Origin: Escherichia phage JS98
Direction: 5' to 3' (one strand)
Length of the DNA: 64,000 nt
Sequence record: NC_010105.1
The position numbers and the translations under genes were made by a program. This document shows positions 37,897 through 40,680 of the stretch, piece by piece (positions within the stretch are counted from its first letter, which is position 1; each line of letters opens with the position of its first letter). The notes beneath the pieces are model-generated. The model ran no database searches and had not been told where the DNA came from. It saw only the letters and a list, made by a program, of their open reading frames with translations.

Positions 37897-38477
37897 TTGT
37901 ATACTGTTTCCGTCAGTGTAGTAAGTTCGTCTATTTTATACCAATGGGTTTCAAGCATTTCACGTTGGCGAATTTCATGAAGGAAGTTTTCTTCCAATTG
38001 AACCGTAGAATTCACACGATGACATTTCTCAATACGAGAAACAACCACTTCATCGGCATAAGGCAACGCCGCATATAACAGAGCAGGACCACCAATAACA
38101 CTGATGCGATTTTCGCTGGCATCGATAAATGTTTCAAAATTTGTATTAGGACTGGATAATTGGATACGTCCACCAGCTACTAAGGTAACATACTCATCCC
38201 AGGTAATATAAAAATGAGCTAAATCACCATCTTTAGTTTCAGGGTAGCCGCGTTTAATATCGCATACCACTACATGACTACGGCCTGGTAATAATGTGGG
38301 CAATGATTGGAACGTTTTGGCGCCCATAATCATTATTGTACCTTCAGTACGAGCTTTAAAATTCTGAAGGTCCTTTTTAACTCGTCCCCATGGAAGCCCA
38401 TCACCTAAACCAAATGCGTTTTGTTTTGTACCGTCAACCGTTTCTGTTGGAGAATAAGCGAACACTAATTTAATCAT
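37893..38477 (-). CDS. frd: Dihydrofolate reductase
   Basis: 194 aa DHFR. Confidence 0.88.
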
Positions 38478-38815
38478 TTTAATTCCTTAACCGCATTTTT
38501 AATTGCAGTAAAATCTTTGCGAATATCAAGAACCAATTTGTAAAGGTGTTTAATGGTATCAGTATCAAAATAAGCGACGGCACAACGTGATTGGCGAATA
38601 TCTTCTAATGAATATTTGCTTTCGCTAGACCCGTATCCAATGATACCGCTAATGCACTTGTCATTAAGCGTATATTTCTGTGGGCCATCAATATTATTTT
38701 TAGGATAGATGTAAAGGCTCCAATCAAATTTTTGTTCAAGCGTATTAACCTTAACTTCAAGAATCAGTTCAGGATGTGCATCATCTTTAGCAAAGCAAGT
38801 GTATTCAGTAAGCAT
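38474..38815 (-). CDS. Hypothetical protein (frd.x)
   Basis: 113 aa ORF. Confidence 0.5.
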
Positions 38816-39060
38816 TATAGCACCTCAACATGTGTGATATCGTTTGGCCAAATAATGTCATGATGGTTATAATAGGAAATATCACCCTTAACAAAACGAT
38901 AATTATTACCACGGCCTTGCTCCCAGGCCAAAGATACCTTATGGAGGTTTTCATAACGGTCCCTGACCCAAAAGGATTCGTCATATGCAGTATTATTATA
39001 AAGTCTATCCAATTCTGCTTCGGTACCAGTAAACTCTTTTAAATTGATAGTAATTTGCAT
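38815..39060 (-). CDS. Hypothetical protein (frd.x)
   Basis: About 82 aa from the internal ATG at 39060. Confidence 0.45.
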   Translation of the reverse strand: MQITINLKEFTGTEAELDRLYNNTAYDESFWVRDRYENLHKVSLAWEQGRGNNYRFVKGDISYYNHHDIIWPNDITHVEVL

Positions 39061-39070
39061 TATATTTTCC

Positions 39071-39310
39071 TCACGCTTTCTTAGCGATTTTCCAGTCAGC
39101 TTTAAATTGGTCAACATCAGAATGGTGAATCCAGAAACCAGATGAGCTACCATCTTCATAAAGAGGACAACCATCACACTCATCTTTCCAGCCCATTTCA
39201 CACAAAGCTTGTTCGGCTTTTTCCAGAGCTTCCGGATTGCTACCTTGGATTGTGAAGTACCATTTGCCTTTAACTTCAGAATCTTTAATTGATTCGCGTT
39301 GTAATTTCAT
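39071..39310 (-). CDS. Hypothetical cysteine-containing protein
   Basis: 79 aa; own early promoter. Confidence 0.5.
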   Translation of the reverse strand: MKLQRESIKDSEVKGKWYFTIQGSNPEALEKAEQALCEMGWKDECDGCPLYEDGSSSGFWIHHSDVDQFKADWKIAKKA

Positions 39311-39336
39311 TTTATTCTCCTCAAGTTGATAAGGCT

Positions 39337-39366
39337 ATAGTATCACTACCATAGCCTTAGGTAAAC
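39337..39366 (-). promoter_or_regulatory. T4-type early promoter with imperfect inverted repeat around the -10
   Basis: rc GTTTAC ... TACTAT; AAGGCTATAG / CCATAGCCTT inverted repeat. Confidence 0.5.
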
Positions 39367-39368
39367 AC

Positions 39369-39596
39369 TTATTTTTGAATTAAGCCCATATAAAATTCAG
39401 CGTCTTCAGCATGCATACCATCGCAATATTCATCAGCCATAAAGCGGGTAAGGTCTTCAAGAGGACCTTGAACTTCAATTTGCATACTACAGAATTGTGT
39501 GTCTTTGATATAAGTCATAGTCAAAGAAGGATAACGATTACGGATAACTTCGTAAGTGTATTCAAAATCAACGATATCAATATTAACCTTAGCCAT
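39369..39596 (-). CDS. Hypothetical protein
   Basis: 75 aa; own early promoter. Confidence 0.5.
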
Positions 39597-39628
39597 TTTA
39601 TTTTCCTCACTCGTTAGTTGATAGGTCT

Positions 39629-39657
39629 ATAGTATCATGCCTATAGACCTTGTAAAC
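39629..39657 (-). promoter_or_regulatory. T4-type early promoter with perfect 9 bp inverted repeat GGTCTATAG/CTATAGACC
   Basis: -10 TACTAT, 17 nt, -35 GTTTAC; IR at 39624-39632 and 39641-39649. Confidence 0.55.
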
Positions 39658-39659
39658 AT

Positions 39660-39920
39660 TTATTTTTGAATTTTATCAAGCCATTTACCAAGCTTAATCA
39701 TTTCTTTGGTAGCTTTTTCCATACTTCTGAATTTAACCAGTAAGGGTTGAGCATCAACACCCATAACTAAGGTGGTTACAAGACTATGTTCGCCTACAAG
39801 CCATAACGAATACGTTTGGATATCGAGGCCGTAATTTCGGTCTTTATGAACTCGTACACCCATCACTTCAAATTTCTCACTGGCTTTTTCTACTGCATCC
39901 AGGAAATCATCTTTAGTCAT
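39660..39920 (-). CDS. Hypothetical protein
   Basis: About 86 aa from the ATG at 39920 that abuts the upstream stop. Confidence 0.45.
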   Translation of the reverse strand: MTKDDFLDAVEKASEKFEVMGVRVHKDRNYGLDIQTYSLWLVGEHSLVTTLVMGVDAQPLLVKFRSMEKATKEMIKLGKWLDKIQK

Positions 39921-39921
39921 G

Positions 39922-40305
39922 TTAGGCCTTAAAAGTTTTTTGCAAAAGTTCAATAATTTGGTCGACGTTCTGTTCAGTGACAATGCAATGGATTTGGGTC
40001 ACGCCGGTCTTAGTAACAGGTTTGTCAACTTCATCTTGTCCATCATATTCACGGAAGCAATAGAACTCATCTTCATGCAATTCAAAATATTCCTCTAGTG
40101 TTCCGTCTGCACTAAAAATCTTGCCATTAGCACATTTTATTTTAGTTACAAATTTATCCCCATCTGTGGTCGTTGTATCCTTTACTTCAAACCACCCACC
40201 GTTTTCTTGGATAATATCGACCATATCATTATTATTGATAGGGGTGATATTGATAAAAGCTTTGATACACTCAGGGCGAAGTTCGTATTTTTTACCAATT
40301 TTCAT
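39922..40305 (-). CDS. Hypothetical protein, tandem paralog A
   Basis: 127 aa; about 30 percent identical to the upstream ORF (shared EYFEL.E.EF..F.E.DG, T..T.IH and C-terminal L..TF). Confidence 0.55.
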   Translation of the reverse strand: MKIGKKYELRPECIKAFINITPINNNDMVDIIQENGGWFEVKDTTTTDGDKFVTKIKCANGKIFSADGTLEEYFELHEDEFYCFREYDGQDEVDKPVTKTGVTQIHCIVTEQNVDQIIELLQKTFKA

Positions 40306-40308
40306 TTT

Positions 40309-40680
40309 TTAAATTCCAAAGGTAGCTTTAATCAAGGCAACAACTTCTGCCGCATTTTTGTGATTTACCTGCACATGAATGGTTTGGGTATCAACAGCAG
40401 GAGCATCGCCATCAACTTCCAGGAAGTGACAGAATTCCCATTCACCGAGTTCAAAGTACTCATCAGAATCACCCATACTATTCAGGATGGTGCCATCTTT
40501 CATTTCAACTTTTTCAACAAAATAAACACCTTCAATACAACGCATATCCAGGACTTTGAAGGAATTGCCATGTTGTTCCAACAACCTGACTATGCACGAA
40601 TTATAATTATCATCAGGACTACCAGCGGTGAATTGTTTTTTGGCAGCAGGGTCTAATACGTAAAATTTACCAGTTTCCAT
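40309..40680 (-). CDS. Hypothetical protein, tandem paralog B
   Basis: 123 aa; paralog of 39922-40305; own early promoter. Confidence 0.55.
   Translation of the reverse strand: METGKFYVLDPAAKKQFTAGSPDDNYNSCIVRLLEQHGNSFKVLDMRCIEGVYFVEKVEMKDGTILNSMGDSDEYFELGEWEFCHFLEVDGDAPAVDTQTIHVQVNHKNAAEVVALIKATFGI

Follow-up and report, generated by a model that had tools for sequence, protein, structure and literature searches.

Introduction

Among the closest described counterparts of the arrangement discussed in this work are the promoter-early stem-loop (PeSL) cassettes (Arbiol et al. 2010, PMC2839356; Comeau et al. 2014, PMC4122927), for which both promoter and terminator/attenuator activity were shown by Arbiol et al., who also proposed that recombination between one PeSL and another shuffles the variable regions of T4-type phages (PMC2839356). 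The work of Repoila et al. (1994), as cited in Arbiol et al. (PMC2839356), deals with internal-protein loci and not with the interval between the dihydrofolate reductase gene (frd) and gene 32. It is this frd-32 interval that we analyse here, in a stretch of 64,000 nucleotides of Escherichia phage JS98 (sequence record NC_010105.1; the whole stretch is hereafter called the window), where seven small open reading frames (ORFs), all on the minus strand, occupy positions 38474-40680. In T4 the interval (NC_000866, 145762-146802) contains frd.1, frd.2 and frd.3, and an earlier note on this DNA was right about both counts and about the block being bigger than that of T4.

The phage in the window is a JS10-like Dhakavirus, and the locus itself is already known. 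The JS10 record (EU863409 / NC_012741, EpJS10_0226-0232) has the identical seven ORFs in the same order, all of them annotated and four of them named (frd.2a, frd.2b, frd.3 and frd.1); the two neighbouring ORFs that the earlier note singled out as a tandem paralog pair are the frd.2a/frd.2b of this record. We use these names throughout, and call the remaining three ORFs X1, X2 and X3. All in all, the locus is very probably the ordinary variable (‘hyperplastic’) early region that lies between frd and gene 32 in T4-type coliphages, here in a JS10-like Dhakavirus.

Results

Gene content of the interval

When searched by megablast against the phage collection, positions 38300-40900 are 98.0% identical in nucleotides to JS10 over 100% of the query, followed by phage MN04 (97.6%), whose layout is as in JS10. 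Frd.2a of the window and of JS10 are 94% identical in amino acids. The two records place the start of X2 differently: in JS10 (EpJS10_0227) it lies farther upstream, giving 122 amino acids and a 113-nucleotide overlap with frd.1 (window 38815-39201; JS10 extract 2016-2384), whereas in the window a GAGGAAAA ribosome-binding site stands ahead of an ATG at 39060 and the phrog_4308 profile has 79 positions, both of which favour the 81-amino-acid form. As a separate observation, frd carries a mosaic patch (38097-38296) with 57-75% identity to JS10 over about 200 nucleotides, the rest of 36797-42000 being at least 87% and mostly 97-100% identical; the Frd proteins of the two phages share only 86% of their amino acids.

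Every one of the seven ORFs aligns over its full length with a PHROG family (E 1e-75 to 3e-29), which marks them as conserved genes and not as chance ORFs. Four are homologs of T4 frd.1, frd.2 (twice) and frd.3: against Pfam FRD2 (PF03197, cut-off 29) frd.2b scores 132.5 bits and frd.2a 115.2 bits, over profile positions 1-95 of 96; frd.3 scores 132.1 bits (1e-38) against Phage_FRD3 (PF05798, cut-off 28.1); and frd.1 scores 120 bits (5e-35) against DUF5417 (PF17438, the family of T4 Frd.1, cut-off 23.9). Amino acid identities to T4 (tblastn) are 73% for Frd.1, 71% for Frd.3 and 61% for frd.2b against Frd.2, and X1, X2 and X3 gave no match in the T4 frd-32 interval by the same method. That all seven might be no more than orthologs of the T4 frd.x genes, which would have undone the claim of an enlarged block, is thus contradicted.

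Compared with the window, T4 lacks X1, X2, X3 and a second Frd.2 of the 2a type, and its order, read from gene 32, is frd.3-frd.2-frd.1 as opposed to frd.2a-frd.2b-X3-frd.3-frd.1. For a wider comparison, the annotated intervals of other T4-type phages were searched with the window proteins (Table 1). Phage RB51, which belongs to T4's own genus, has six ORFs in its interval, X1 and X3 among them, and this, along with the orders found in the other T4-type phages, places T4 at the small end of the range. The expansion relative to T4 described in the earlier note is therefore real as far as the three ORFs without a T4 match are concerned, but the other four belong to T4 families, and judging from the gene orders T4 looks reduced rather than the window's phage expanded.

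Table 1. Order of ORFs in the frd-32 interval of T4-type phages, read from gene 32 towards frd. Slashes mark gaps that separate units; most of these gaps, though not all, yielded a T4-type promoter.
Phage	Genus	Order
T4		frd.3 / frd.2 / frd.1 (each its own unit)
RB51	Tequatrovirus	frd.3 / frd.2-X3 / frd.1-orf119 / X1
JS09	Mosigvirus	frd.2 / frd.1-orf82
IME08	Dhakavirus	2b-X3 / frd.3 / frd.1
dhabil	Dhakavirus	2b-X3 / frd.3 / frd.1-X1
VR26	Gaprivervirus	2a-X3 / frd.3 / frd.1-X1-orf75
MN01	Gaprivervirus	2b-like / frd.3 / 2a-X3 / frd.1-X1
S16	Gelderlandvirus	two other ORFs / frd.3-2a / 2b / frd.1 ... X2-like
Window and JS10		2a-2b-X3 / frd.3 / frd.1-X2-X1

Two clades of Frd.2

The paralogy of frd.2a and frd.2b, asserted in the earlier note from their shared EYFEL.E.EF..F.E and C-terminal L..TF blocks, holds up in a formal alignment: the two proteins are 35% identical over 127 columns (BLASTP, E=2e-20; 40% in the MAFFT matrix), both belong to PF03197, and the blocks are invariant or nearly so in 37 family members. 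Two such genes, adjacent, separated by 3 nucleotides, similar in length and with their first codons (ATGRAAAYTGGTAAA) in common, could be taken for recent tandem duplicates of frd.2 that arose in the lineage of this phage and then diverged rapidly. However, in a neighbour-joining tree and identity matrix (MAFFT) of 15 Frd.2 proteins, which form three clades, the two do not group with one another. The first clade is of T4 type and comprises T4 Frd.2, MN01_249, S16 gp159, the dhabil and IME08 proteins and frd.2b of the window; the second is the RB51/JS09 type; and the third, or 2a type, unites frd.2a of the window with MN01_251, VR26 and S16 gp159.1. In the matrix, frd.2b is nearer to S16 gp159 (67%), T4 Frd.2 (64%) and MN01_249 (62%) than to frd.2a, and frd.2a is nearer to MN01_251 (93%), VR26 (84%) and S16 gp159.1 (66%). 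Moreover, there are sister phages with just one of the types, dhabil and IME08 having 2b and VR26 having 2a, and three genera combine the two, namely those of the window, of S16 and of MN01, in which last frd.3 separates them. A duplication within this lineage is in view of this very improbable, and the local event suggested by the earlier note's term ‘tandem paralog pair’ is to be given up.

As judged from these alignments, the pair is shown to be the meeting of two anciently diverged Frd.2 clades, which parted before the divergence of Tequatro-, Dhaka-, Gapriver- and Gelderlandvirus; on the same grounds, frd.2b is the ortholog of T4 frd.2 and frd.2a the type that is found alone in VR26.

Outside this group of phages, three tandem FRD2 genes (hmmsearch, E 8e-40, 3e-36 and 3e-34) were seen in LTH01 (Escherichia phage vB_EcoM-LTH01, PP430345, extract 2513-3757), a member of the Vequintavirinae, and one of the three proteins shares 61% of its residues with Frd.2 of the RB51 type. 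Both the FRD2 family and its tandem arrays thus extend beyond T4-type phages.

Promoters, hairpins and transcription units

The T4-type early promoter module of the interval can be written as GTTTAC-N16/17-TGATACTAT-AG(A/C)C(C/T)TATCAAC (AGACCTATCAAC), and it is present in three copies only, in front of frd.2a, frd.3 and frd.1 (Table 2), each followed by a Shine-Dalgarno sequence and a start codon. The earlier note had counted four ORFs with an early promoter of their own, which is one too many: a promoter search of the interval found no T4-type promoter before X2, X1, X3 or frd.2b, X2 having the UGAGGA Shine-Dalgarno sequence but not the promoter. The 21-nucleotide promoter core occurs six times in the window, where none is expected. 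A candidate for a fourth promoter at 39114-39087, the sole sigma-70-like match, agrees at 9/12 positions, which is background level (19 sites against 16.4 expected), and was rejected.

The ORFs without a promoter start 0-10 nucleotides past the preceding stop codon or overlap it. The start of frd.2b follows the frd.2a stop at the spacing given above (TAAAAAATG), that of X3 lies 1 nucleotide past the frd.2b stop (TAACATG), and a 10-nucleotide spacer separates frd.1 from X2; the start of X1 overlaps the stop of X2 (TAATG), just as the stop of X1 overlaps the start of frd (ATGA). No promoter or terminator motif was found between frd.1, X2, X1, frd, a 68-amino-acid ORF (37690-37896) and td.

Two of the promoters are overlaid by strong hairpins, of -15.4 kcal/mol (z -3.5) at frd.3 and -18.0 kcal/mol (z -4.0) at frd.1, the 3′ arm of which holds the -10 element in both cases. 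The promoter of frd.2a shows no significant fold (z +0.36); it adjoins the gene 32 terminator on the downstream side. A hairpin of the same kind is found at the early promoter before frd.1 of T4, and the equivalent promoter hairpins of T4, VR26, IME08, S16, MN01 and JS09 have z scores of -3.6 to -5.2. Since these hairpins are strong and yet their arms differ from phage to phage (e.g., GGCUAUGGUA, GGGUAGUAGU, GGGUUAUGGU, GAUAGGGUUAU), complementarity is kept while the sequence changes. They were folded one by one, as a one-column register shift between phages spoiled the joint alignment structure for a covariation count.

As read from the sequence, there would be three sigma-70 early transcription units, frd.2a-frd.2b-X3, frd.3 and frd.1-X2-X1, the first of them starting after the gene 32 terminator, and the last appears to run on into frd, the 68-amino-acid ORF, which is basic, and td.

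Table 2. Coordinates of the features of the frd-32 interval in the window, from gene 32 to frd.
Feature	Position	Strand	Description
Gene 32 (single-stranded DNA-binding protein)	40791..41696	-	301 amino acids; 100% amino acid identity to JS10 gp32; upstream boundary
Intrinsic terminator after gene 32	40755..40774	-	GGGAAGAC-TTCG-GTCTTCCC then TTTTT; -14.5 kcal/mol, z -3.9; from terminator scan
Early promoter of frd.2a-frd.2b-X3	40710..40737	-	TTTACA-16-TGATACTAT, then AGACCTATCAAC...UGAGGA leader; no hairpin of its own
frd.2a	40309..40680	-	123 amino acids, isoelectric point (pI) 4.6; Frd.2 family, non-T4 clade
frd.2b	39922..40305	-	127 amino acids, pI 4.7; T4 frd.2 ortholog
X3	39660..39920	-	86 amino acids; not in T4
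PeSL-like cassette 5′ of frd.3	39623..39656	-	promoter 39656-39629; hairpin AGGTCTATAG/CTATAGACCT at 39650-39623
frd.3	39369..39596	-	75 amino acids, pI 4.3; PF05798 Phage_FRD3
PeSL-like cassette 5′ of frd.1	39330..39365	-	promoter 39365-39337; 13-bp hairpin 39359-39330
frd.1	39071..39310	-	79 amino acids; PF17438 DUF5417
X2	38815..39060	-	81 amino acids from ATG; ORF-sized cassette between TATAATG repeats; phrog_4308 at 3e-33
X1	38474..38815	-	113 amino acids; narrow family; phrog_8592 at 1e-75
frd (dihydrofolate reductase)	37893..38477	-	downstream boundary

Gain, loss and exchange of ORFs

In pairwise blastn comparisons the gaps between the window and its relatives are exactly ORF-sized. 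Dhabil and IME08 are missing frd.2a (40310-40665), and in both the frd.2a-type promoter and leader directly precede frd.2b; VR26 is missing frd.2b (39925-40308); and X2 (38820-39056, with breakpoints at 38819/39057) is missing in dhabil, VR26 and MN01. Short direct repeats stand at both ends of X2 (TATAATG) and of frd.2a (TAAAAATGRAAAYTGGTAAA). At X2 the edges read ...AAAATATAATG|CAA and ...GTGCTATAATG|CTT, and dhabil has ...AAAATATAATG|CTT; at frd.2a they read TAAAAATGGAAACTGGTAAA and TAAAAAATGAAAATTGGTAAA, and dhabil has a single copy of the repeat and then frd.2b. The order of the modules also differs among the compared phages at the promoter cassettes.

Some of the accessory ORFs are more alike across genera than the core genes that flank them (frd.2a is 90% identical in nucleotides to MN01, where gene 32 is 74% identical, and X1 is 91% identical to VR26, where frd is 66% identical; blastn), which is a signature of lateral exchange.

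The ORFs X1, X2 and X3

The distribution of the three ORFs differs greatly. X1 is found in 78 phage records, all of T4-type coliphages and relatives, and adjoins frd in all matches listed; an exhaustive HMMER search of 1.84 billion representatives returned only two clusters, with no remote relatives among them. X2 is rare in coliphages, with only 7 records at an identity of at least 95%, and has distant homologs in Karamvirus-type and jumbo phages. X3 is found in 347 phage records, including Phapecoctavirus (59% amino acid identity) and Webervirus (42%), and its presence in unrelated phage families indicates that the gene has moved between families. In Phapecoctavirus tuntematon (extract 2504-2776) and Webervirus Domnhall (extract 2501-2767) the homologs sit among small hypothetical early genes. 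The predicted model of X3 is moderately confident (pLDDT, the predicted local distance difference test, of 74.8), and nothing informative came from its fold matches.

One record, that of EAWsc9 (PQ341120, extract 1501-1842), labels its X1 homolog as ‘type II toxin-antitoxin system PemK/MazF family toxin’, and the size of X1 would be similar to that of such a toxin. That X1 is a MazF/PemK-type toxin is nevertheless hardly credible, as it has no hit to Pfam PemK at E up to 0.1, a probability of 0.05% in hhalign against a profile of two sequences, MazF and Kid, both entered by hand, and no antitoxin-like neighbour, being a gene coupled to frd. The label was rejected on the sequence grounds of Pfam and hhalign.

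The position of X3 invites another suggestion, namely that it is the functional partner of Frd.2 and makes up with it a module of two translationally coupled genes, since X3 starts 1 nucleotide past the Frd.2 stop in 6/6 of the X3-bearing T4-type genomes, whichever of the three Frd.2 clades precedes it (2b in the window, dhabil and IME08, 2a in VR26 and MN01, and the RB51 type in RB51). Even so, Frd.2 does without X3 in T4, S16 and JS09, and X3 does without Frd.2 elsewhere, as no FRD2 neighbour was found in the Phapecoctavirus and Webervirus loci searched. A simpler account of the linkage is that X3 serves as 3′ homology arm in swaps of frd.2 alleles, and a functional partnership seems to us unlikely.

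Neighbouring loci

Some observations were made just outside the interval and elsewhere in the window. The 68-amino-acid ORF (-) in the gap between frd and td has a pI of 10.3, matches phrog_9550 and is joined to its neighbours by ATGA and TAATG overlaps; it is not annotated in JS10, corresponds to dhabil_24 in dhabil, and has no counterpart in T4, where frd and td overlap directly. The td gene (36833-37690, -) is uninterrupted in the window, as opposed to that of T4, which has a group I intron with I-TevI, and, also unlike T4, there is no segG homing-endonuclease gene between genes 32 and 59 (41697-41786). Further early promoters with inverted repeats lie on the minus strand at 31377-31330, 61560-61515, 27645-27600 and 23957-23915. 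In some of them the 3′ arm covers the downstream Shine-Dalgarno sequence (e.g., TCTCCTCAT...ATGAGGAGA at 31377), which would mask the ribosome-binding site in read-through transcripts only.

Discussion

Differences in gene content between T4 and the window have, as the comparison shows, arisen by the gain, loss and swapping of whole ORFs among T4-type phages, in our interpretation through recombination at short homologies located in the coupled stop/start sites and in the promoter cassettes. The boundaries of the indels, all of which fall exactly at stop/start junctions between short direct repeats, fit the published picture of modular shuffling by PeSLs and short homologies, and the hairpins would probably play a double role here, attenuating or processing read-through transcripts on the one hand and supplying homology for recombination on the other. 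The promoter-plus-ORF modules are, as the earlier note proposed, accessory modules.

Some points weigh against this interpretation. Events that were themselves imprecise could also leave ORF-exact junctions if selection then favoured operons that had stayed intact, and recombination directed to the junctions and the survival of ORF-exact products only both fit the junctions observed. The hairpins have neither a U-tract nor G/C tracts, so that their terminator activity is an assumption that we make by analogy. Finally, the data on T4 frd.2 itself are in conflict, the gene being scored ‘Fit’ by CRISPRi-ART, as the sole T4 fitness gene of unknown function (PMC11879866), whilst frd.2 amber mutants of T4 plate normally (PMC12152347).

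As to what the Frd.2 proteins do, Kim et al. (2025) placed T4 Frd.2 in a fold family with GoF and MotB.1, predicted an LSm-like N-terminal domain for it, and reported that GoF(D25Y) stabilises a reporter RNA (PMC12152347). The statement of the earlier note that none of the ORFs has a recognisable function is thus correct for biochemical function, but it overlooks both this fold family and the fitness score. The fold is reproduced independently by our predicted model of Frd.2a, which consists of an acidic N-terminal small bent antiparallel beta-barrel, closest to FeoA-type SH3 folds, and a C-terminal helix; Frd.2b would be built in the same way. Having the barrel, and being similar to both GoF and MotB.1, Frd.2a can be counted in that family: its matches in Foldseek against BFVD include GoF of phage VR7 (E 2.2e-5) and T4 P39415 (E 3.3e-4), the 13.8 kDa protein of the motB-dexA interval, i.e., MotB.1.

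This resemblance, along with the LSm-like domain and the effect of GoF(D25Y), could be read as a sign that Frd.2a and Frd.2b work as RNA chaperones of the Hfq (LSm) kind, by which mRNAs of the phage would be stabilised or regulated, as has been proposed for the GoF/MotB.1/Frd.2 family. The Frd.2 proteins examined are, however, strongly acidic without exception, and this fits badly with an Hfq-like role in RNA binding. We hold such chaperones to be rather improbable and direct Hfq-like binding of RNA to be the less likely mode of action. Most likely, Frd.2a and Frd.2b would be dispensable early modulators of host takeover or gene expression acting via a protein partner.

A broader possibility is that the extra ORFs, together with the Frd.2 copies, serve in counter-defence or determine host range, each of them counteracting one particular variant of host immunity, and the two clades being kept because their targets differ. 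The ORFs would be expressed early, and they are small and acidic and can be dispensed with in T4; their distribution is patchy, and they have been exchanged across genera and phage families (X3 with Phapecoctavirus and Webervirus, X2 with jumbo phages); and tandem arrays of FRD2 recur independently, with two genes in S16 and three in LTH01. Yet this pattern is equally expected of any dispensable accessory function. None of the eight ORFs searched belongs to a PADLOC family, a weak test given that PADLOC covers defence and not anti-defence proteins, and nothing meaningful came up for them in NCBIfam. No solved structure is related to them by sequence, the search of X1, X2, X3, frd.1, frd.3 and a Frd.2 profile among solved structures having returned nothing meaningful, and no phenotype was found in the literature searched, where the DUF5417 and FRD2/FRD3 accessions also yielded nothing relevant. 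We therefore regard a counter-defence or host-range function as possible but doubtful.

It is tempting to go one step further and speculate that the Frd.2 proteins, early, acidic and SH3-like, make up a family that is diversifying, that its clades (the 2a, T4/2b and RB51 types) target different variants of a host or phage factor and are stacked in tandem (as in JS10, S16 and LTH01) to widen the range, that X3 is a partner travelling along with it, and that ORF-exact exchange at stop/start microrepeats is a general, somewhat integron-like cassette mechanism operating beside PeSLs. Taken as a whole, however, such a scheme would be a long shot.

As a discovery the locus carries small weight, given that it is annotated in JS10, that the literature of 2010-2014 already covers variable early regions and promoter/stem-loop cassettes of T4-type phages, and that the Frd.2 fold family dates from 2025. 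What this work adds is the juxtaposition of two old clades in the pair, as opposed to a duplication, the exactly ORF-sized indels with short repeats at coupled stop/start junctions, and the acidity of all the Frd.2 proteins examined, and these three additions could aid the follow-up of the CRISPRi-ART result on frd.2.

The comparison with PeSLs brings out both differences and similarities. The stems are A/T-rich and have neither the poly-G/poly-C tracts of the RB49 and phi1 PeSLs nor a U-tail, which is why we name them ‘PeSL-like’. Again unlike the PeSL model, several of the indels end at stop/start microrepeats and not at cassettes, and 1/3 of the promoters has no hairpin: promoter and Shine-Dalgarno sequence occur together at 3/3 of them, and the stem-loop at 2/3. 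In the remaining respects the two systems agree. In both, the early promoter is strong and sigma-70-like, the region upstream of it is AT-rich, a stem-loop overlaps the -10 element, and the 3′ end supplies a Shine-Dalgarno sequence together with a start codon. The genes that they precede are of unknown function and lie in variable regions where gene content varies among relatives.

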